DNA of 21,103 bases from a virus (IMGVR_UViG_2547132281_000013:1-21103); one strand, 5' to 3'. Numbered from the stretch's first letter, positions 5,195 through 20,780 are shown. Numbers and translations: made by a program. Notes: a model not told the origin generated them from the letters alone.

Positions 5195-5248
5195 CCTGGT
5201 TATTCCCCAACAACAAGGATTCGGTTAATCTGGTTATCCCCAACAACG
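5195..5248 (+). repeat. imperfect direct repeat (CTGGTTAT[T]CCCCAACAAC, two copies) just upstream of ORF 5263
   Basis: Copies at about 5195-5215 and 5230-5248, ending 15 bp before the RBS (AAGGAAAAG) of the 144-aa ORF. Confidence 0.4.
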
Positions 5249-5262
5249 CAAAAGGAAAAGAA

Positions 5263-5697
5263 ATGTCCGGTAATATCTACACGCTGTACAAATCCCACTG
5301 TGAAAATGTTGGAAAGTATCGGGGCATTGAAATCAGTGGGGTAGTGTCATCAGTCGAAATAAGCAGAGTGGAATCAAGGGCAACATTACTTACTCTTCTG
5401 GACCTTGTCTTACATGAGCACCGGAAGAAATTCGGCACTCCCTATAATCAGTTGAATGGGAAAAAGGCTCTGGTTCACCTTATTCTGATGAAGCATCACT
5501 GGATGCCAAAACAGATTAATGAGATGAAATTCGATGAACTTCTTCTTTCAATTCAGGATGAACTCACACTTGATAAAATAAGCGTAACCGCCCAGAAATT
5601 TTTAGATTATCGAGACTGGAGATCACAAATTCATCACTTTGATGATTTTGACGAAAATGAATGGGAGCCTAATTTGTCTGCACAATATCTAAAGTAA
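5263..5697 (+). CDS. hypothetical protein, 144 aa; moron-like gene antisense to the leftward early operon
   Basis: ATG with AAGGAAAAG RBS. No transmembrane segment and no recognised domain. Its 3' end overlaps the convergent small ORF at 5669-5875 by 29 bp. Confidence 0.45.
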   Translation: MSGNIYTLYKSHCENVGKYRGIEISGVVSSVEISRVESRATLLTLLDLVLHEHRKKFGTPYNQLNGKKALVHLILMKHHWMPKQINEMKFDELLLSIQDELTLDKISVTAQKFLDYRDWRSQIHHFDDFDENEWEPNLSAQYLK

Positions 5698-5875
5698 CAT
5701 CCTGTGATAAAACCGTGATTTCCTGATCCAGTTTTTTTAAGGAGTCTATTGTTTCCTGTCGATAAGACAGCACTTCACGAAGCTGGTTTATAGCTGCCAG
5801 CTTCTTTGTCATCCACTCGTAAATTTCCTCATTTGTGTATCCGGGCGCGACGATTTTTGGTTCTTTTTTGTGCAT
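5669..5875 (-). CDS. small hypothetical protein, 68 aa; first gene of the leftward (PL-like) operon
   Basis: The ORF track begins at a TTG, but the likely start is the ATG at 5875 (MHKKEPKIV...), which has GAGGAGG 7 nt upstream. Not Arg-rich, so not an obvious N-type antiterminator. Confidence 0.4.
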   Translation of the reverse strand: MHKKEPKIVAPGYTNEEIYEWMTKKLAAINQLREVLSYRQETIDSLKKLDQEITVLSQDVTLDIVQTN

Positions 5876-5935
5876 TTCACACCTCCTCAAGTTATCAGTT
5901 ACTTGTTGATGGGGACCAGATTGTTAAAGAGCTAA

Positions 5936-5956
5936 GCGCCCGAAAGGGCGTTTTTT
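5936..5956 (+). terminator. putative rho-independent terminator on the plus strand
   Basis: GCGCCC-GAAA-GGGCG followed by TTTTTT. Confidence 0.4.
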
Positions 5957-6025
5957 GTTGCTAACGAATCATCCTGGACTTCATATGCCTCAGGCGGCTA
6001 CTTCGTGGGCGTCCTGCCTGTTCTT

Positions 6026-6062
6026 TGTTTCGTTTGGGTACATTATGTATCTCAAGGGTACA
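6026..6062. promoter_or_regulatory. OL-like operator pair
   Basis: TGTTT-N7-GTACA (6026-6042) and TGTAT-N7-GTACA (6046-6062). The GGGTACATT motif occurs twice. Same half-site family as the cI/cro intergenic operators. Confidence 0.45.
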
Positions 6063-6073
6063 TTGTCAAGTAT

Positions 6074-6096
6074 AAAAAAACCTGCCGAAGCAGGTT
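6074..6096 (-). terminator. rho-independent terminator downstream of the repressor gene
   Basis: Minus-strand stem AACCTGC-TTCG-GCAGGTT followed by a run of seven T; lies 13 bp past the cI stop. Confidence 0.5.
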
Positions 6097-6108
6097 CATA
6101 GACATTGA

Positions 6109-6783
6109 TTAGGCTTTGATTTTGTATCTTCTTGGTTTTCCTGAGAAAATCACTGTACCAATTATAGAGCAATTACCGTTGATCTTAATGTAAGGCTCAG
6201 GCCAATTTGGGTTTAACGCTTTGAGATAACGCTGTGTCCCATCTTCTATCAACCTTTTGAAGGTGGTTTCACCTGTATCGTGCATCAATGCAATAACATC
6301 GTCACCGTGGCAGGCAGGTACTTCAGGATCGACAAAAATCATGTCTCCCGGGCGGTACTCATCAATCATTGAATCACCTATCACCCGCAAGATATAAGTC
6401 ATTTCCCCACAGGGTACAGGGCAGGGATACGTTTCTGCTGTGCTCAAATCAACCTCAGAATATCCAACTTCTTTCCATGCTCCGGCCTGTACCCATGATA
6501 TGACAGGGACTAATGTGATTTGTTTATTAGTGATTGAAACATCAGGTTTTTTTGTGATGTTCGTTGTCTGGTGTTCTTGATCGAGCCATCCGATAGGCAG
6601 GTCGAAACATTTTTCGATGTGTCGTGCCATGCTGTCACCGATATTTTTAGTAGCACCATCTCCCATAAACCTGCTGGTCTGGGTTGGCTCGCGATCAATC
6701 ATAGTGGCAAAGGAAGAATTCCCGCCAACACCATCTCTCAGTTTTCTGGCGTTAGACCGCCGGATGTCATGGATTGTTTTCAT
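6109..6783 (-). CDS. cI: CI-like prophage repressor (N-terminal HTH, C-terminal S24 LexA-type autopeptidase)
   Basis: 224 aa. The C-terminal domain carries the S24 catalytic Ser (RVIGDSM) and a downstream Lys (TTFKRL). Divergent from a Cro-like gene across an operator-bearing intergenic region. Confidence 0.85.
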   Translation of the reverse strand: MKTIHDIRRSNARKLRDGVGGNSSFATMIDREPTQTSRFMGDGATKNIGDSMARHIEKCFDLPIGWLDQEHQTTNITKKPDVSITNKQITLVPVISWVQAGAWKEVGYSEVDLSTAETYPCPVPCGEMTYILRVIGDSMIDEYRPGDMIFVDPEVPACHGDDVIALMHDTGETTFKRLIEDGTQRYLKALNPNWPEPYIKINGNCSIIGTVIFSGKPRRYKIKA

Positions 6784-6873
6784 AACGAAATTAAAACCCT
6801 TGTACCGTTAAGGTACAAGTGTCTTGAAGGTTCATTTCAATCATGTAATATGTACACCGGAGGTACATATTGT
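6784..6873. promoter_or_regulatory. divergent immunity control region (OR/PR/PRM-like)
   Basis: Two dyad operators TGTAC-N7-GTACA at 6801-6817 (within the 21-bp palindrome CTTGTACCGTTAAGGTACAAG) and 6851-6867. Candidate rightward promoter: -35 TTGAAG (6824-6829), 16-bp spacer, -10 TAATAT (6846-6851). The second operator overlaps the -10 and the start site. Confidence 0.55.
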
Positions 6874-7074
6874 ATGAAAGCGTATTGGGACTCTTTAACC
6901 AAAGAACAGCAGGGCGAGTTGGCCGGAAAAGTTGGCTCAACACCTGGCTACTTACGGCTGGTTTTCAATGGCTATAAAAAAGCCAGTTTTGTGCTGGCTA
7001 AAAAACTTGAGCAATGCACGTCAGGTGCAATTACGAAATCTGACTTAAGACCGGATATCTATCCGAAAGATTAG
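6874..7074 (+). CDS. cro: Cro-like HTH regulator
   Basis: 66 aa from the ATG at 6874, with GGAGG 10 nt upstream. The longer ORF-track frame (6571-) runs antisense into cI and is rejected. Confidence 0.6.
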   Translation: MKAYWDSLTKEQQGELAGKVGSTPGYLRLVFNGYKKASFVLAKKLEQCTSGAITKSDLRPDIYPKD

Positions 7075-7105: not shown

Positions 7106-7672
7106 ATGAGGCTAACCGTGGGTAAGCATCACTGGAAAATAGAAAAACAGCCTGAGTGGTACGTGAAAGCTGTCAGAAAAACTATCGCAGCGTTGCCGGG
7201 GGGTTACGCTGAAGCAGCTGACTGGCTGGATGTAACAGAGAACGCATTATTTAACCGCCTTCGTGCCGATGGCGATCAGATTTTCCCGCTGGGATGGGCA
7301 ATGATTTTGCAACGTGCTGGTGGAACTCACTTCATTGCTGACGCTGTGGCGCAGTCTGCAAATGGCGTCTTTGTGTCTCTTCCTGATGTCGAGGATGTGG
7401 ACAACGCCGATATCAACCAACGCCTGCTGGAGGTCATTGAACAGATCGGCAGTTATTCAAAACAGATTCGTTCAGCAATTGAAGACGGTGTAGTGGAACC
7501 GCATGAGAAGACAGCAATTAACGACGAGCTGTACCTCTCAATTTCGAAGCTGCAGGAGCATGCAGCACTGGTCTACAAAATTTTTAGTACATTCAAGAGA
7601 AGTAATGACGCCCGCGAGTGTGCAGCTCCGGGCGCCGTGGCGTGTCGTGACTGTGGAGAAACTAACGCATGA
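7106..7672 (+). CDS. YmfL-like putative early regulator (CII-position gene)
   Basis: 188 aa, immediately downstream of cro. Length and position match e14 ymfL from memory. An alternative GTG start at 7121 has a better SD. Confidence 0.45.
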
Positions 7673-8007
7673 ACAGTTTAACAACACACTACCGTCGCTC
7701 GCAACTGATTGCGCTTCCTGTACCGGGTGGAAAAGCGAAGGTGGAGTATTGCTATGCAGTAAATGTACCAGGTGGCAGGGTAATTGTAACCCACAGCTTT
7801 GCAGAGTGGGCTGTGGGTGATTTTAACCGGCAAAAGGAGACAGTCCTTTGCGACAAGTTAACCGCTGGTTCAAAGATCACTACGGAGTACCCGTCAGAGT
7901 CATTCGTTGGGAGCCGGAAACACAACGGGTTATCTACCTCCGCGAAGGCTATGAGCATGAATGCTTCAGTCCGCTCGAACAGTTTCGTCGTAAATTCAGG
8001 GAAATAG
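7669..8007 (+). CDS. YmfM-like hypothetical protein, 112 aa
   Basis: ATGA start/stop coupling with the preceding gene. The 3' half overlaps an alternative-frame ORF that has a stronger RBS (next feature). Confidence 0.35.
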
Positions 8008-8027
8008 AGGTCGGTCATGAGCACTAA
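7848..8027 (+). CDS. small DUF4222-like protein, 59 aa, TTG start, in an alternative frame
   Basis: AAGGAG at 7833-7838, 9 nt upstream of TTG 7848. Product [58 protein letters not shown] is protein-like and recalled as resembling DUF4222 prophage proteins. Confidence 0.4.
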
Positions 8028-8292
8028 ATTAACCGGCTATGTATGGGATGGTTGCGCTGCATCAGGCATGAAGTTATCCAGCGTGGCAATTATGGCACGC
8101 CTGGCTGATTTCAGTAATGACGAAGGTGTGTGCTGGCCATCAATTGAAACCATTGCCCGTCAGATTGGCGCGGGGATGAGTACCGTCAGAACGGCTATCG
8201 CACGGCTGGAAGCAGAAGGCTGGTTAACGCGTAAGGCGCGTCGCCAGGGTAGAGACAACAAAAGGAGCCTGGGATGTACAGCAGACTGTTAA
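8017..8292 (+). pseudogene. N-terminal fragment of a phage replication-initiation (O-like, HTH) protein
   Basis: The first ~77 aa ([78 protein letters not shown]) look like a replication-protein N-terminus. The frame then runs into unrelated sequence and stops at 91 aa, where full-length proteins are much longer. Confidence 0.5.
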
Positions 8293-8828: not shown

Positions 8829-10400
8829 TTACTGAGAGCTCAGATCAACTTTCCAGGGCAACAGATCGCGTACCCGGTTTGCCGGCCAGTCCTGGATATG
8901 TTCAATGACGTAACGCAGCCACTTTTCTGGCTCCACATTGTTCAGACGGCATGTGCCGATCAGCGAGTACAACACCGCCGCATGTTCACCACCGCTGTCG
9001 GAACCCGCGAACATCCAGTTTTTCCGGCCTACGGCCACTCCCCGTAAGGCGTTCTCTGCGATGTTGTTGTCGATTTCCACCCAGCCATTACTGCAGTACA
9101 CGTTCAGTGCATCCCACTGTTTCAGCAGGTATGCGAACGCTTTTGCCGTATCTGAGTGACGCGACAGTGTTTTCATCTGTTGCTGTATCCAGTCATACAG
9201 TGACTGCATCAGTGGCGCGGCTCTGGCTTTTCTTGCCGCCAGACGCTGTTCTGCTGAACAGCCCCGGACCTCTGCCTCGATGGCATACAGTTCACCGATA
9301 CGCTGCAGGGCTTCCGTGGTGATGTCGGTGGGCGCTCTTGCATGCACATCGTGGATTTTTCTCCGGGCATGAGCCATACACGCGGCTTCCGTTATTCTGC
9401 CGGATTCGTATAACGCCCGGTAACCACCGTAAGCATCGGCCTGAAGCACACCGCTGTAACCGGCCAGGTGATTTTGTGGATGGATACCTTTCCGGTCCGG
9501 ACTGTACGCGAACCAGACCGCCGGGGGCATCTGTGAACCGGCGTTACGGTCATCACGGACGTAGACCCACAGCCGGGCTGTCCGGGTTTTACCGCTGCCC
9601 GGCTCCTGGACCGGGACGGGGATATCATCAGCATGGACTTTACCGGGCATCAGCACATACTGGCGCAGGACGTCATACAGCGGCTCCAGCAGTTCAGCAA
9701 CAGCACCTGTCCAGCGCCCCAGTGTGGCACGGCTCAGCTCCACTCCCTGACGACGGTATATTTCTGACTGGCGGTATAACGGCAGATGGTCTGCATATTT
9801 CCCGGTGACAACATGGGCCAGAAGCCCCGCTCCGGCATAACTGCGTGCAATGGGTTTTGAAGGTACTGGTGCCTGCACGATATGGTCGCACCGGCAACAG
9901 GCCTGTTTCGGACGTTGTGTTTCGATAACCTTAAAGGCGCTGCTGATAAGCTCCAGTTGCTCTGACACATCACATCCCAGAGAACTGAGTTCACCACCAC
10001 AGGCAGGACAGCATTCCTCTTCCGGCCGGATAACCCGGGTTTCACGGGGAAGTGAGGCCGGTAACGGTTTACGGGCTGAAGACTGGCGCAGGGCGGATGG
10101 CAGTACCGGGTCATATTGCTCACCCAGCGTTTCCGCCATTTCTTCCTGAAGTGCGCTGATTCGCTCCTGTGCTTCCTGTATCTGCCGTTCGGTTTTTGCA
10201 CGAAGTTTTTCTGAGCTTTTACCGAACTGCATGCGCTGCAGTTTCGCAACCAGCGCCTTCAGCCGGTTGATTTCGGAAGCATAAGCCGCCACCCGCTGTG
10301 AGAGCAGGCGGTTGTATTCAGCCATCTGGCGGATGGTGTCCTGTTGCGTCTGCAACAGTGCCCGCAGGCGGGCGTTCTCATGAGCAAGTGAGGTGTCCAT
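8829..10400 (-). CDS. tnpC: IS66-family transposase TnpC
   Basis: 523 aa with an N-terminal coiled-coil/leucine-zipper region, a CxxC...C zinc-finger-like motif (CCPACGGEL...) and a DDE-type core. Confidence 0.85.
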
Positions 10401-10419
10401 ATCCTCACTTTACAACGGG

Positions 10420-10767
10420 TTATATGCGGATTCCAGCGCGTTCCGTTCGTTTCGGGTGCTTCCAGTTGATACCTTCAAGAAGCATGGATAACTGAGCCGG
10501 AGTAAGGTGCACCTTGCCGTCACGGGTGACTGGCCAGACGAAGCGGCCCCGCTCCAGGCGTTTGGTGAAGAGGCACAGTCCGTCACTGTCAGCCCACAAC
10601 ACTTTTATCTGGTCACCCCGGCGTCCGCGGAAGATGAACAGGTGTCCGGAGAACGGGTCATCCTTCAGGACGTTCTGAACTTTTGATGCCAGGCCGTTAA
10701 AGCCATTTCGCATATCGGTGATACCTGCAACCAGCCAGATACGCGAACCTGCAGGGAGAGATATCAT
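10420..10767 (-). CDS. tnpB: IS66-family accessory protein TnpB
   Basis: 115 aa, typical IS66 Orf2 (LWADSDGLCLFTKRLERGRFVWP), translationally coupled to tnpA. Confidence 0.8.
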   Translation of the reverse strand: MISLPAGSRIWLVAGITDMRNGFNGLASKVQNVLKDDPFSGHLFIFRGRRGDQIKVLWADSDGLCLFTKRLERGRFVWPVTRDGKVHLTPAQLSMLLEGINWKHPKRTERAGIRI

Positions 10768-11444
10768 CAGTGGCTGCTCCCTTTTATTTCGCGGATAAGT
10801 GTCTGTAATAACGCCGGCGTCAGTTTACCTTTAAGCCTGAGAGTTCCGGCCGGCAGAACCAGCTCACAACACAGACTGTCGGACGGTGTATTTATCTGCT
10901 CTGGTTCCTGTGCGGGGGCCGGGATTTTATTATCCGGCTCCGGCGTTAACGTCACGGGAAGCAGTGCCGGCATATTTTTTCCGGAAGGCAGCAGGCCACC
11001 TTTCCGGTATTGATGGCGCCAGTTGAAGAGCAGGTTATCGTTGATTCCGTTTTCCCGGGCGATCTGCGCCACACAGGCTCCGGGCTGCAGTGACTGCTCC
11101 ACTAAGGCGATTTTAAACTCATAAGGGAAGTTGGGCCGCCGGGGACGTTTTTTTACCACGGGGGCTTCGGATATAACGGTGCTTTCAGGACGTACGACTG
11201 GTACCGTGGAAAATTGTCCGTAAAGGCAGGCATCAAGTTCCTGCTCCGACATGCCTGCGGGCAAAGGCCACGAAAGGCCAGCTCTCCGAAAGCGCACGAA
11301 CATACTACAAACTGTTGATTTTGGTACACCCAGGCGACGCCCGGCCACAACCCGGGGTAAATGTTCTTCAAAGTGAAGACGTAAAGCTTCAGTGATCCAG
11401 GTCCGGTGTTTCATACGATAGTGTCCATTAAAAATGATGGACAT
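10767..11444 (-). CDS. tnpA: IS66-family accessory protein TnpA (HTH), with an N-terminal extension
   Basis: The C-terminal part carries the IS66 OrfA HTH (PRRPNFPYEFKIALVEQSLQPGACVAQIARENGINDNLLFNWRHQYRKG). Start is uncertain between the ATGs at 11444 and 11414. Confidence 0.7.
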   Translation of the reverse strand: MSIIFNGHYRMKHRTWITEALRLHFEEHLPRVVAGRRLGVPKSTVCSMFVRFRRAGLSWPLPAGMSEQELDACLYGQFSTVPVVRPESTVISEAPVVKKRPRRPNFPYEFKIALVEQSLQPGACVAQIARENGINDNLLFNWRHQYRKGGLLPSGKNMPALLPVTLTPEPDNKIPAPAQEPEQINTPSDSLCCELVLPAGTLRLKGKLTPALLQTLIREIKGSSH

Positions 11445-12197: not shown

Positions 12198-12701
12198 GTG
12201 CCGCATATGGCTGGAACGGCGGGGCGTTCCGGGCGTCGCCCCAAGCCAACGGCGCGCAAGGCGCTGGCCGGAAACCCCGGCAAGCGAGCCCTGAATAAAG
12301 ATGAACCTGTTTTTACGCCCATCAAAGGTGTTGAGCCACCGGAGTGGTTCGCTGAAGAAGATCTCCCTCTCGCCACGATCATGTGGCAACTGACAACTAA
12401 AGAACTCTGCGGTCAGGGCCTGCTGTGCGTGACTGACCTCGCAGTGCTTGAGCGGTGGTGTGTGGCCTATGAGTTCTGGCGACGTGCCGTGAAAAATATT
12501 GCCAGACAGGGCAACACCATCACCGGTGCAATGGGCGGTATGGTCAAAAATCCGGAGCTGACCGCCAAAAAAGAACAGGAGTCCGAGATGAGCAGTACGG
12601 GGGCAATGCTCGGACTCGACCCCAGCAGCCGCCAGCGTCTAATTGGCCTGGCGGGGAAGAAGAAAGCCACTAACCCGTTTCTGAAAATCATCGAATCATG
12701 A
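12198..12701 (+). CDS. terminase small subunit (P27-family-like)
   Basis: [21 protein letters not shown] motif. The likely start is the ATG at 12207, which has AGGAG 8 nt upstream; the ORF-track start at 12198 is a GTG. Stop overlaps the terL start (ATGA). Confidence 0.75.
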
Positions 12702-13561
12702 GCCGGAAATCTTACCCCAACGTAAATGCTGCCAATCAGTATGCCCGTGATGTCGTGCGCGGAAAGATTGTGGCCTGCCAGTTTGTGATTCAGGCCTGCC
12801 AGCGGCATCTTGATGACCTGATGGCGGAAAAAAGTAAGTCGTTTCGTTACCGCTTCGACAAGGACCTGGCTGAACGGGCCGCTAAATTTATTCAGCTGTT
12901 GCCGCACACCAAGGGTGAGTGGGCATTTAAGAGGATGCCCATCACGCTGGAGCTGTGGCAGCTCTTTGTGATCTGCTGCGCGTTTGGCTGGGTCAATAAA
13001 GGCTCCCGGCTGCGCCGCTTCCGTGAGGTGTATACCGAAATCCCCCGTAAGAACGGCAAATCGGCAATCTCTGCCGGTGTCGCCCTGTATTGTTTTGCCT
13101 GTGATAACGAGTTCGGCGCGGAAGTGTATTCCGGTGCCACGACGGAGAAACAGGCATGGGAAGTCTTTCGTCCGGCAAGACTGATGTGTAAACGCACACC
13201 CATGCTAACGGAAGCGTTCGGGATTGAGGTTAACGCCTCAAACATGAACCGTCCGGAGGATGGTGCGCGTTTTGAACCGCTGATCGGTAACCCCGGTGAT
13301 GGTTCATCACCCCACTGTGCGGTGGTGGATGAATATCACGAGCACGCCACCGATGCGCTTTACACCACGATGCTTACCGGGATGGGGGCGCGACGTCAGC
13401 CACTGATGTGGGCCATTACTACTGCCGGGTACAACATTGAGGGGCCGTGCTACGACAAGCGGCGGGAAGTTATCGAGATGCTCAACGGGTCGGTACCTGG
13501 CCTGCGGTACAGAATGACCGTTACGGCTCCCGACTGTGGCTGCTTCAGCGCAGCAAACTGA
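12698..13561 (+). pseudogene. terminase large subunit, N-terminal ATPase portion only (truncated)
   Basis: Walker A-like GKS (PRKNGKSA) and Walker B-like VVDEYHE are present. The frame stops at 287 aa after a non-conserved tail, and no nuclease domain follows. Confidence 0.65.
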
Positions 13562-13770
13562 CCAATCAGCTGGTGCAGACGGTAAGGGGGTATATCCGCG
13601 AATGCCTGCAATGGATGATTGATGACGGCGTGGTGTCCCGTATTGATCTGGATATCCGCCGCACCGGGATTAATGAACTGGGTAACAGTATCACTCTCTG
13701 GCGTCGTGACGGACCGGTAATGATTTCTTTTGATGATCTGTGGAGTGCGATAACGCATGGCGGACAGTGA
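13562..13770 (+). pseudogene. start-less C-terminal remnant of the gene preceding baseplate J (possibly gpW/gp25-like)
   Basis: Protein-like frame (...IRECLQWMIDDGVVSRIDLDIRRTGINELGNSITLWRRDGPVMISFDDLW...) ending in overlap with the baseplate J start. No credible start or RBS after the terL stop. Confidence 0.25.
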
Positions 13771-14815
13771 ATTTCAGCGCCCGACGCTGGCAGAAAATAT
13801 CAGTATGCTCCGTAACGATTTATTCGCCAGGCTGGACGTCAGCGACACGCTCCGGCGCATGGATGAAGACGTGCGGGCAAAGGTGTATGCGGCGGCGCTG
13901 CATACGGTTTACGGTTACATCGATTATCTGGCAATGAACATGCTGCCTGACCTGTGCGATGAGTCCTGGCTGGCGCGACATGCTGCGATGAAACGGTGTC
14001 CGCGCAAGGGAGCCACGGCTGCCAGTGGGTATATGCGCTGGGAAGGTGTCAGCGATGGCCTGAAGGTGACCGCCGGGAGTGTTATTCAGCGCGATGACCT
14101 GGTGCAGTACACGACAACTGACGATGCAACCAGCTCCGGTGGTGTCCTGCGCGTGCCGATCGCCTGCTCAAGTGCAGGTGCGGTCGGTAACGCTGACGAC
14201 GGTACGGCATTAATCCTGGTCACGCCGGTGAATGGTCTGCCGTCTTCCGGTGTGGCTGACACCCTGACAGGCGGATTTGATACTGAAGAGCTGGAAACGT
14301 GGCGCGCCCGCGTCATTGAGCGGTATTACTGGACGCCGCAGGGCGGGGCTGACGGGGACTATGTTGTCTGGGCTAAAGAAGTGCCCGGCATTACCCGCGC
14401 ATGGACATACCGACACTGGATGGGAACGGGGACTGTCGGTGTGATGATTGCCAGCAGCGACCTGATTAACCCCATTCCGGAAGAATCAACGGAAACGGCG
14501 GCAAGACAACACATTGAGCCACTGGCCCCGGTGGCAGGCTCTGATTTGTATGTATTCAGGCCGGTGGCGCACAAAGTGGATTTTCATATCCGCGTGACTC
14601 CGGACACACCGGAAATACGGGATGCCATCACCGCGGAGTTGCGTTCATTCCTGCTGCGTGATGGTTATCCGCAGGGAGAGCTGAAGGTATCGCGTATCAG
14701 TGAAGCGATTTCCGGTGCGAACGGGGAATACAGCCATCAGTTGCTTGCTCCGGCGGACAATATCTCCATTGCAAAAAATGAACTGGCGGTTCTGGGGACG
14801 ATTTCATGGACGTGA
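13757..14815 (+). CDS. baseplate assembly protein J-like (P2 gpJ family)
   Basis: 352 aa. Position immediately upstream of a gpI-like and tail-fibre gene with overlapping start/stop, and overall similarity to the e14 jayE-type protein. Confidence 0.75.
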
Positions 14816-17806: not shown

Positions 17807-19696
17807 TTAATCGTGTTTTGGCCATACTTTCAATGCAATTTCCCCCAACTTTTTACCCCGCTCCAGGATTTCATCCTCATCCCATTTATCCTTAACTATA
17901 AGTGGAATGTTCAGTCGTAGATTGGTGTGGACGATGAGAGCATCACGTTTTTTCAGAAATACAGCATTCTGAACAGAACGGTTTACGCTAAGGTTAAGCA
18001 AAGTTAGATTTCCCAACGTAGCTATCGCTTGTTGCCGTTTCCTTACCAGTAGCTGTTCAGGGGTAAGATCGGTTCCAGACAGAACAATTTGGTTCAATAC
18101 CGTAGCATCTGAATTTGTCACCATATGACCATTTTCGAGAGGCCAACAGGAAAACCAACTTTGAGGCATAAGATGATCGATATCGAGATTGGAAAGATTT
18201 GGACCATCAGGCTTCTCTGTCTTCACTTGGCGACAAAGTTCTCTTTCAAGTTCCGTTAACATTGAGCGCATTTTCGGTGCGTCGAGCCTGCCAGGATAAA
18301 GTGGAGCATTGATGCAAGCATTGAGAAATTCTGAGTCACCAGGCCAACGTGAGGCTTCGCCATTTAAGCTATTGAGGATATTACGTAACTCAACACTGGA
18401 AATTTCCGTTTTAGACAAGTGCCGCAATACATTCATAAATACATTGTTGTAATTCTTTGGCGTCAGGCCACATACGGCTCTTCGTACTACGTAGGAGACA
18501 AGATCATTATACATGGCTGCTTTCTCATCATCAGCGATGTTAGCTATCGAAATGAACAAAGCAAGCGGATAAAGTGTCGTCACATCATAGTCTGCGATGC
18601 GATATCCAAAGTGTGAGATGGGGGTTGTGCCAAAACCATCAACCAATTCTTTATATTGTGATGCATATTGTTTGAGGCGCTTTACTTGCAGATCTGCTCG
18701 TTGTGAAGACAAGTCCTTACTTACATAATCACGATACTCATTGTAAAGGCGAGACAGATCAATTTCACGCTGCCTTTCTGATTGCAATGTCGCATGTACT
18801 AGCCACTCCATGCGTGGTTTATTAATACGTCCACGGCGTTGCTTTTCCGACCAGTATTTATCTTCAAAGCTCTTCCACTCATTTTCATATAATTCAATAG
18901 CATTAATATTTTCATGCTCAGCGCACATAAAGATATAGTTGCGAATAAGATCCGTGGCATGAAGTTCCGCCCCTCGCCCATTTAATGTTTCAAAAATTAT
19001 TTGGGCATCATCTTCAGCTTCGAGAAATATGCTTACCAGTTTCAGATCTGTTAAGACAGCCTCAATTAGAGCTACAGCATTTTCTTGTGGTGAGTGGTTT
19101 TCTATTTTAATCCATTTTATAAAGGCTTCAGTAAAAAAACATAATGCTTCTAGTGATGGCGGGTGATTAAAATGCTTACGCAACGTACCATGCTGCGTGA
19201 AACTATCAGAGAATACGTCCCGGAGATCGTCAATATTTTCAACATTAAAACTTTGAATAAAATGAGTTTGATCCCGAAAAGTTGGCCATAGTTTGAAGCG
19301 TTCTACTTCTTTATTTCGCATTGTGTCTTCGTTTGAGTTTTTCAGGCAAGGCGAAATGAGAGCCTCTAAGCTGAAAAGATCCGTAGCACGTAATGCTAAT
19401 CGGATGGATGCCAGAACATATTGAAGAGTGGTCAATCGTTGCTGACCATCAATAATATGTATGGAATCTACACCTAATAATCCTTTTTTTGATTGAGGTT
19501 CCAGTACAACCGCACCAAGGAAATGGGGAGTTGGTTTTGTACCCGAGAGCCGGGATTGTGCTTTCTCTAGGATATCCTCCAGTAGAGCTGACCATTGGTC
19601 TTGCTGAGTCCATACATAGGCACGTTGATAGAATGGAACACAGTATTGTCGGCGGTCTTGAAAAAGTTGTTGGACAGTTAGCGTCTCGGATTTCAT
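17807..19696 (-). CDS. DUF262/DUF1524 protein, GmrSD-like candidate type IV (modification-dependent) restriction endonuclease
   Basis: N-terminal DUF262 hallmark ...SIHIIDGQQRLTTLQYVLASI... (DGQQR). C-terminal DUF1524-type His-Me finger motifs ...LDIDHLMPQSW... and ...LGNLTLLNLSVNRSVQN.... The likely start is the ATG at 19696 (MKSETLTVQQLF...) with AGGT upstream; the maximal ORF extends to 19756 but has no RBS. Confidence 0.75.
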   Translation of the reverse strand: MKSETLTVQQLFQDRRQYCVPFYQRAYVWTQQDQWSALLEDILEKAQSRLSGTKPTPHFLGAVVLEPQSKKGLLGVDSIHIIDGQQRLTTLQYVLASIRLALRATDLFSLEALISPCLKNSNEDTMRNKEVERFKLWPTFRDQTHFIQSFNVENIDDLRDVFSDSFTQHGTLRKHFNHPPSLEALCFFTEAFIKWIKIENHSPQENAVALIEAVLTDLKLVSIFLEAEDDAQIIFETLNGRGAELHATDLIRNYIFMCAEHENINAIELYENEWKSFEDKYWSEKQRRGRINKPRMEWLVHATLQSERQREIDLSRLYNEYRDYVSKDLSSQRADLQVKRLKQYASQYKELVDGFGTTPISHFGYRIADYDVTTLYPLALFISIANIADDEKAAMYNDLVSYVVRRAVCGLTPKNYNNVFMNVLRHLSKTEISSVELRNILNSLNGEASRWPGDSEFLNACINAPLYPGRLDAPKMRSMLTELERELCRQVKTEKPDGPNLSNLDIDHLMPQSWFSCWPLENGHMVTNSDATVLNQIVLSGTDLTPEQLLVRKRQQAIATLGNLTLLNLSVNRSVQNAVFLKKRDALIVHTNLRLNIPLIVKDKWDEDEILERGKKLGEIALKVWPKHD

Positions 19697-19874
19697 GGTA
19701 TACCTGTAAGCGACATTGTACAAAAGTGAGGAGTTAATCTGATTTAGAACAATCATTTTATTTTGCTATGATACAACGTATTTGTTACCGGTTAAGCAAA
19801 AAACGCGTCTGAACGCTGACGTTTTAGGGCTTTACTGGTTATTCTTTCTTATCTCTTCATCATTGGATTTGCCC

Positions 19875-20780
19875 CTATATTTCCAGACATCTGTTATCAC
19901 TTAACCCATTACAAGCCCGCTGCCGCAGATATTCCCGTGGCGAGCGATAACCCAGCGCACTATGCGGATGCCATTCGTTATAATGCTCGAACGCCTCTGC
20001 AAGGTTCTTTGCTGCCGTTAACCCGTCTGGTTTGGGCATGATACTGATGTAGTCACGCTTTATCGTTTTCACGAAGCTCTCTGCTATTCCGTTACTCTCC
20101 GGACTCCGCACCGCCGTGTTCTTCGGTTCAAGTCCCAACATCCGGGCGAACTGGCGTGTTTCATTAGCCCGGTAGCATGAACCATTATCCGTCAGCCACT
20201 CCACTGGAGACGACGGAAGATCGTTGCCGAAGCGGCGTTCCACCGCTCCCAGCATGACGTCCTGTACTGTTTCACTGTTGAAGCCGCCGGTAGTGACCGC
20301 CCAGTGCAGTGCCTCACGATCACAGCAGTCCAGCGCGAACGTGACACGCAGTCTCTCTCCGTTATCACAGCAGAACTCGAACCCGTCAGAGCACCATCGC
20401 TGATTGCTTTCTTTCACGGCCACTCTGCCTGTATGTGCCCGTTTCGATGGCGGTACAGCAGGTTTTCGCTCAAGCAACAGCGCATTCTGGCGCATGATCC
20501 GGTAAACACGTTTGGCATTGATCGCAGGCATACCATCAAGTTCTGCCTGTCTGCGAAGCAGCGCCCATACCCGACGATAACCATACGTGGGCAGCTCTCC
20601 GATAACATGGTGTATACGGAGAAGCACATCCGTATCATCAGTGTGACGACTGCGGCGGCCATCCATCCAGTCATCGGTTCGTCTGAGAATGACGTGCAAC
20701 TGCGCACGCGACACCCGGAGACAACGGCTGACTAAGCTTACTCCCCATCCCCGGGCAATAAGGGCGCGTGCGCTATCCAC
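19875..20780 (-). CDS. insD: IS2 transposase InsD (OrfB, DDE integrase domain)
   Basis: 301 aa, GTG-initiated frame [28 protein letters not shown]... recalled as IS2 InsD. In vivo it is expressed mainly as an InsCD fusion by -1 frameshifting. Confidence 0.85.

Follow-up and report, generated by a model that had tools for sequence, protein, structure and literature searches.

Conserved TGTAC-N7-GTACA dyads as predicted operators of the e14/SfV-type prophage immunity switch

We analysed a 21,103-bp stretch of viral DNA (IMGVR_UViG_2547132281_000013:1-21103, hereafter the window), in which two divergent genes, a repressor gene and a cro-like gene, are separated by 90 bp. The repressor gene, of the ymfK/cohE type of cI, is an open reading frame on the minus strand at 6109-6783, and its product of 224 aa has the length given in a preliminary description of this DNA. 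Residues 93-212 of the repressor match the Pfam family Peptidase_S24 (E=1.4e-26), and its C-terminal domain matches that of lambda cI (E=1.9e-9). The translation further shows a serine motif (GDSM), a lysine motif (KRL) and a site of the cleavage type (QAG). On the plus strand, the cro-like gene ymfT (66 aa) occupies 6874-7074; its ATG is found at 6874 instead of 6875, where the start had been placed before. The YmfT product gives weak matches to YdaS_toxin and HTH_3, under the Pfam cut-offs, and bears the RefSeq name YdaS family HTH protein. Rightward of ymfT lie ymfL (7106-7672), which Pfam identifies as coding for a CII-like Phage_CP76 protein, and ymfM (7669-8007), whose product is listed in the K-12 annotation as an inhibitor of cell division.

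Comparison with known phages showed that the 1.8 kb around the intergenic region shares 97.7% identity with Shigella phage SfIV and 94.7% with SfV; for phage Ayreon and a group of Stx2c-converting phages the value is about 93%. RefSeq annotates the gene pair in E. coli genomes as ymfK and ymfT, which belong to the cryptic prophage e14. The repressor and the Cro-like protein each differ from K-12 YmfK and YmfT, respectively, by a single residue, and the 90-bp intergenic region differs from that of K-12 MG1655 at one base (6821, G here and A in K-12). SfV, SfIV and e14 thus carry essentially the same element, with cI/cohE/ymfK next to cro/croE/ymfT, and the differences from SfV and e14 are single bases only. 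Past ymfM, the replication-protein gene is reduced to an N-terminal HTH_36 fragment (8017-8292), and an IS66-family element with three minus-strand genes (8829-11444) lies about 0.5 kb beyond this fragment; it probably interrupted the replication-protein gene. The segment 12198-14815 holds a small terminase gene, then a large terminase cut to its ATPase domain (12698-13561), then Baseplate_J (13757-14815). As Baseplate_J follows almost directly after the terminase, the head genes and most tail genes are missing, and the prophage is defective, like e14. At the prophage end we found a gene for a GmrSD-type type IV restriction enzyme (17807-19756, minus strand), in a place where K-12 e14 has other defence genes, followed by an IS3-type transposase gene at 19875-20780.

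The 90-bp gap between the repressor gene and ymfT holds two perfect dyads of 17 bp, both found by reading the sequence and by pattern search. The first, TGTACCGTTAAGGTACA, lies at 6801-6817 (OR-a, TGTAC-CGTTAAG-GTACA), and the second, TGTACACCGGAGGTACA, at 6851-6867 (OR-b, TGTAC-ACCGGAG-GTACA). In both cases the symmetry is wider than 17 bp: OR-a can be read as TTGTACC-N5-GGTACAA over 6800-6818, and OR-b has 9-bp arms over 6847-6871. The exact pattern TGTAC-N7-GTACA occurs twice in the whole 21,103-bp window, against 0.01 matches expected, and none of 100 shuffled controls reached two matches; the pair proposed in the preliminary description is therefore perfect at both sites and well above chance. 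When up to one mismatch was allowed, a single extra match was obtained in the whole window, namely TGTATCTCAAGGGTACA at 6046-6062, which brings the total to 3 against 0.41 expected. This site (OL-a, TGTAT-CTCAAGG-GTACA) lies to the left of the repressor gene, close to a further site, TGTTTCGTTTGGGTACA at 6026-6042 (OL-b). OL-b has two mismatches, both in the distal (left) arm, and taken alone it does not rise above chance, since other two-mismatch matches are scattered through the window.

Both intergenic dyads fall on promoter elements. A PR-like promoter on the plus strand (6824-6851) consists of TTGAAG (6824-6829), a 16-bp spacer and TAATAT (6846-6851), as read from the sequence, and its start is predicted at about 6858. 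This hexamer pair is present as previously given; it had been called a good one, and we would rate it as moderate, as it agrees with the consensus at 8/12 positions. At this score it is under the threshold of the promoter scan, which is why the scan did not list it. Across 30 distinct sequences, the PR hexamers carry 1.1-1.2 bits, compared with 0.6 for the remaining spacer. OR-b covers the last base of the -10 hexamer and the predicted PR start, and its spacer holds the cro ribosome-binding site GGAGG (6859-6863, plus strand), so that the described overlap of the second dyad with both PR and the cro ribosome-binding site is correct. The OR-b spacer is itself conserved (1.68 bits), because it contains this GGAGG.

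The other dyad, OR-a, lies on the promoter of the repressor gene. This PRM-like promoter (6783-6818, minus strand), which we assigned from the alignment and the mapped leaderless ymfK mRNA, has a -35 element TTGTAC (6818-6813), a 17-bp spacer and a -10 element TTTAAT (6795-6790), with transcription beginning on the A of the repressor ATG (6783) or on a neighbouring base. In the alignment, a motif T-N-(T/A)-A-A-T is kept across genera exactly 6 nt before the repressor ATG, and no Shine-Dalgarno sequence precedes the repressor gene across the same genera. A -10-like motif so close to the ATG, together with the missing Shine-Dalgarno sequence, predicts a leaderless repressor mRNA. Consistent with this, differential RNA-seq found a leader of <10 nt for no more than five mRNAs of E. 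coli K-12, that of ymfK being one of them (PMC4681348), and the repressor promoter is thereby located over 6801-6817. OR-a consequently spans -18 to -34 of PRM, within the core of a leaderless repressor promoter and thus in an OR3-like place, which the preliminary description did not note. At this position, bound repressor should block its own promoter.

On the other side of the repressor gene, an intrinsic terminator (6070-6097, minus strand) ends the repressor gene. It consists of a stem at 6097-6078 with 8 pairs and a loop of 4, followed by a T-run, in agreement with the cI terminator earlier placed at 6074-6096. The terminator is annotated likewise in the SfV and Ayreon records, and throughout the Enterobacterales the hairpin and the T-run after the repressor gene are kept, with differing stem sequences. 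Directly beyond it lies a PL-like promoter (6042-6069, minus strand), TTGACA (6069-6064)-16-CATAAT (6047-6042), which agrees with the consensus at 11/12 positions and has a predicted start at about 6035; the Ayreon record also has a minus-strand promoter annotated just past the repressor terminator. In 22 distinct enterobacterial sequences, the -35 and -10 elements of this promoter carry 1.66 and 1.93 bits, respectively. OL-a fills the spacer of the promoter, and OL-b, at a distance of 20 bp centre to centre (about two helical turns), lies over the predicted leftward start. With the terminator in between, and the leftward promoter conserved across the Enterobacterales together with the left sites, the lambda-like OL/OR layout suggested beforehand is upheld.

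The two left sites are conserved to different degrees. Every Enterobacterales locus examined carries OL-a beyond the terminator, and the OL-a arms hold 1.82-2.00 bits against 0.54 at the spacer centre (22 distinct enterobacterial sequences, dyad-anchored). For OL-b, the proximal arm (GTACA, 6038-6042) carries 1.70 bits and the distal arm 0.75 bits in 22 enterobacterial sequences, and a full dyad with one mismatch occurs only in the Edwardsiella and Trabulsiella relatives. From these values we consider OL-b to be a strong half-site, GGTACA (6037-6042), with a weak, degenerate partner, TGTTT (6026-6030). Hence, of the two left sites originally described as related dyads, 6046-6062 stands with one mismatch, and 6026-6042 has to be revised to a conserved half-site joined to a poorly conserved half. 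In the Pseudomonas phages CF60a and LESphi3, the OR dyads are kept and no TGTAC dyads are present after the repressor gene; palindromes of the type CTGTATATACAG, which resemble LexA boxes, precede the next genes downstream of the repressor in these two phages.

We also observed a 25-nt box, CAGGCAGGACGCCCACGAAGTAGCC, on the minus strand in the leftward leader (5995-6019); about 17 nt separate it from the predicted PL start, which lies upstream. In the leftward leaders of prophages representing eight or more enterobacterial genera, this box is nearly invariant and its flanks vary. Searches of Rfam returned nothing meaningful, either for the whole window at gathering thresholds or for 5200-6900 at E up to 5, and the predicted fold of the leftward leader showed no unusual structure (z = 0.04). 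Roberts and co-workers reportedly described, in 2007, a transcription-termination immunity system downstream of PL in SfV, and the 25-nt box may belong to this SfV-type system.

Conservation among prophages sharing the repressor had been named in the preliminary description as the point on which its proposal could fail, and our comparison supports the proposal on this point. In a close set of 82 loci, drawn from IMG/VR contigs, SfV and Ayreon and having a repressor identity of 99% or more, we found 29 distinct intergenic sequences. Together with the window (30 sequences), 2 of 20 columns were variable in the OR arms, compared with 5 of 14 in the spacers. One of the variable arm columns lies in the left arm of OR-b, which reads either TGTAC or TGTAT (TGTAT in SfV), and three neighbouring PR spacer columns, 6836-6838, are hypervariable.

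A more distant set was assembled by tblastn of the N-terminal domain of the repressor on phage genomes, followed by an alignment scan with one genome per species, which gave 34 loci from about 20 gammaproteobacterial genera with N-terminal domain identities of 50-99%. Besides many Enterobacterales, this set includes Edwardsiella, Proteus, Serratia, Salinicola, Halomonas, Vibrio, Pseudomonas and Amphritea. Paired dyads with at most one mismatch, 50-51 bp apart, precede the repressor start in 32 of the 34 loci, with arms kept and spacers varying; the other two, both from Vibrio, have one comparable dyad each. The dyad centres lie about 26 and 76 bp upstream of the repressor start in most of the 34 loci; for OR-b, the value of about 76 bp applies to nearly all of them. 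The position of OR-a relative to the ATG falls within -26 to -30 in 31 loci; outside this range it lies at -49 in Amphritea and at -55 in one Vibrio locus. All remaining dyad matches in these loci, each taken as 3.2 kb, are downstream of the repressor gene, mostly just past the terminator, and none lies within genes or far upstream. Measured over 30 distinct sequences, the OR-a arms carry 1.86 and 1.75 bits, against 0.37 at the spacer centre, and the OR-b arms carry 1.57-1.58 bits. An instructive case is Edwardsiella phage EPP-1, whose N-terminal domain is 64-66% identical and which has all four sites with different spacers, arranged as two OR dyads, the terminator, and then TTGACA-[TGTACCCATGCGGTACA]-CATAAT-[TGTACTTATAAGATACA].

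We then found that the presence of the dyads follows the recognition helix of the repressor. The motif (E/S)(P/E)TQ(T/I/V/A)SR in this helix is common to the loci with dyads. In the loci of BP-4795 (H-19B type) and Ralstonia phage RSK1, where the repressor domains are about 41% identical and the recognition helices are different, no TGTAC dyads were detected, and other repeats occupy the same place. Conserved arms with variable spacers, and loss of the dyads where the helix has changed, are the pattern expected of operators read by the N-terminal domain of the repressor. The consensus of these putative operators in the family is (A/T)TGTACC-N5-GGTACA(A/T). A Cro of the YmfT type is present in every locus with dyads, so the comparison does not tell cI, Cro or both apart as readers of the dyads; by analogy with lambda, both probably read them.

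Between the two strong OR dyads there is a candidate third dyad, X, at 6818-6834 (AGTGT-CTTGAAG-GTTCA), which the preliminary description missed. X lies over the PR -35 element and is centred at position -43 relative to the start of the ymfK mRNA. The strong sites are 50 bp apart, and X is located between them at distances of 33 and 17 bp. In its arms, X agrees with the dyad at 6/10 positions in the window and at 7/10 in K-12. The agreement rises to 8/10 for the Pseudomonas and Halomonadaceae loci and for most of the remaining enterics, and it falls to 5/10 in a single locus. For comparison, 0.36% of background positions have at least 7/10 arm matches. X always lies 16-17 bp from OR-a, and the mismatched arm varies by lineage. 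We put forward the hypothesis that X is the counterpart of OR2 and would complete a three-site OR.

What kind of protein would recognise these sites is indicated by the N-terminal domain of the repressor. A Pfam search with its 75 residues (window 6559-6783) gave no family, even with E values of up to 10 allowed, and comparison with the 434 repressor domain gave a non-significant hhalign probability of 0.7%. A profile of five sequences of this domain is similar over its full length to the DNA-binding domain of SPC32H Rep (5d50_A, E=1.2e-7), and the helix-turn-helix assignment is thus based on this one PDB relative (5D50). A single-sequence AlphaFold2 model of the repressor reached a pLDDT of 31 and was unusable. 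The domain is widespread in gammaproteobacterial prophages, yet has no Pfam model. SPC32H Rep, the sole solved relative, binds palindromic sites; it works as a tetramer, and an antirepressor inactivates it (PMC9638917). The repressor described here instead carries a lambda-type S24 cleavage domain, and its operator is probably different from that of SPC32H Rep, since the recognition-helix residues differ in the alignment.

The resemblance to lambda lies in the overall organisation. As in lambda, the repressor and cro genes are divergent, 17-bp partly symmetric operators lie on PR, PRM and PL, the repressor mRNA is leaderless, the self-cleaving S24 C-terminal domain is homologous to that of cI, and OL is situated at a strong leftward promoter. 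The differences concern recognition and spacing. The half-site is TGTAC(C) here, whereas the lambda operator half-site is TATCAC, and the N-terminal domain is not detectably related to the lambda or 434 repressor domains. Moreover, there are two strong OR sites 50 bp apart with a weak one between them, in contrast to the three sites of lambda, which are 23-24 bp apart. Finally, nothing but the terminator separates the repressor stop from OL, a distance of about 45 bp, whereas lambda has rexAB and a 2.4-kb gap.

Taken together, our analysis suggests that these dyads serve as operators in the immunity switch of an e14/SfV-type lambdoid prophage, a reading made from sequence comparison to which we give a probability of about 85%. 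What is found at the locus corresponds to such a switch with regard to the gene layout, the overlap of the sites with the cores of PR and PRM (the PR start being a predicted one), the second cluster at PL, the repressor domains, and the way in which site conservation tracks the recognition helix. We propose that the 224-aa YmfK/CohE-type repressor would bind as a dimer, with one N-terminal domain on each TGTAC(C) half-site, and that the Cro-like YmfT probably reads the same sites. Judging from position, repressor on 6851-6867 would cover the -10 and +1 of PR and the cro ribosome-binding site, and would thereby silence ymfT-ymfL-ymfM. Repressor on 6801-6817 would, by its position, limit its own synthesis, as at lambda OR3, and the weak dyad at 6818-6834 may act as OR2, which is the least certain step. 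On the left side, occupation of 6046-6062 in the PL spacer and of the half-site 6037-6042 on the start should, from their positions, silence the leftward operon, which runs to xis and int. Induction would then occur by RecA-stimulated self-cleavage of the S24 domain, recognised here by homology, and would free both PR and PL. In agreement with such a scheme, e14 genes on both sides of the switch (intE, ymfJ and ymfM) are induced late in the SOS response, which has been attributed to the CI-like repressor (PMC11002266).

The widely spaced OR sites would also allow a different arrangement, in which a repressor tetramer clamps both strong OR dyads and loops out about 50 bp including PR, unlike the neighbouring dimers of lambda. 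This idea comes from the constant distance of 50-51 bp, about five helical turns, between the strong OR dyads from E. coli to Pseudomonas and Amphritea, and from the observation that the weak dyad always abuts one strong dyad, and it recalls the tetrameric DNA binding of SPC32H Rep. We regard the tetramer arrangement as rather unlikely. If it were true, the clamp would be a switch architecture of a distinct type, found widely and based on an N-terminal domain for which Pfam has no model.

Returning to the repressor as the reader of the dyads, the sites might instead be read only by the Cro-like YmfT or the CII-like YmfL, with the cI-like repressor recognising another sequence. YmfT is itself a small helix-turn-helix protein, and its occurrence in every locus with dyads means that co-occurrence does not discriminate between it and the repressor. 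However, a dyad in the core of the repressor promoter and an OL pair next to the repressor terminator fit control by the repressor in a lysogen, and no other dyad family is present in these e14 regions. The loci of BP-4795 and RSK1, which have the same general type of Cro, a changed repressor helix and no dyads, also speak against YmfT as the only reader, with the qualification that a joint change of both proteins would fit these loci equally well. YmfL homologues are absent from several loci that keep the dyads. Recognition by Cro or YmfL alone is less economical than recognition by the repressor, and we consider it very improbable.

We found hardly any room for the view that the dyads function as RNA hairpins, either terminating or attenuating transcription ahead of the repressor gene or hiding the cro ribosome-binding site. 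The ymfK mRNA, which starts at its ATG, would contain neither dyad, and the cro mRNA would lack half of the hairpin, as the predicted PR start at about 6858 is beyond the left arm of the second dyad. The second dyad does flank the cro GGAGG, and the scan lists 6819-6799 (minus strand) as terminator-like, with GGTTTTAATT coming after the stem. Relatives, however, do not keep the T-run that follows the first dyad and have for example GGTACACAATGTC and GGTACAGATGATGG at this place, and TGTAC is fixed in sequence with no compensatory changes in the arms, as is typical of protein recognition. For these reasons an intrinsic terminator at 6799-6819 was rejected. Sites for a host factor such as LexA would account for the SOS induction of the e14 genes, which were once listed as LexA-repressed, but this is most improbable, because the E. 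coli SOS box is CTGT-N8-ACAG with TGT and ACA 8 bp apart and the dyads place them 11 bp apart, the dyads track the N-terminal domain of the phage repressor across hosts as far as Pseudomonas and Halomonas and vanish once its recognition helix changes, and sfiC/ymfM has been published as not being under LexA control.

Parts of this picture are already known. The element is the immunity region of the long-known e14/SfV prophage family, and a provisional operator annotation for SfV dates from 2002: the SfV GenBank record marks 26377-26445, corresponding to about 6800-6868 of the window, as "putative operator region". Mehta, Casjens and Krishnaswamy are said to have identified repressor and Cro binding sites of e14 in 2004 by comparison with SfV. 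In the SfV and Ayreon records examined, the OL sites are not annotated as operators, and Ayreon marks the promoter only. Papers from 2020-2024 still word the control of e14 by a CI-like repressor as likely. Within the literature covered by our search, we found no experimental report of binding to these dyads and no mapped start sites for PR or PL, and a full-text search for TGTAC/GTACA phage operators returned only unrelated systems, such as the TGTACA palindromes of YefM-YoeB. To what is known, we add from sequence analysis the conservation of the putative operators throughout the family with a consensus, the near-invariant spacing of 50-51 bp, and the placement of one dyad within the leaderless repressor promoter, as well as the predicted assignment of the OL promoter and the candidate third site. 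These additions sharpen the known picture; they neither change it nor establish a new principle.

In summary, our results point to a set of conserved dyads as the likely operators of an immunity type that is common, being present in 1,323 of 5,426 complete E. coli genomes and found in K-12 e14, in the serotype-converting phages SfV and SfIV, and in Stx2c-converting phages. The switch would control SOS-inducible genes, such as that for the division inhibitor YmfM. In the Stx2c phages, prophage induction, and hence toxin release, is expected to depend on the immunity switch. The consensus and the mapped promoter overlaps provide targets for binding studies, and they should make homoimmune prophages of this family recognisable from sequence.
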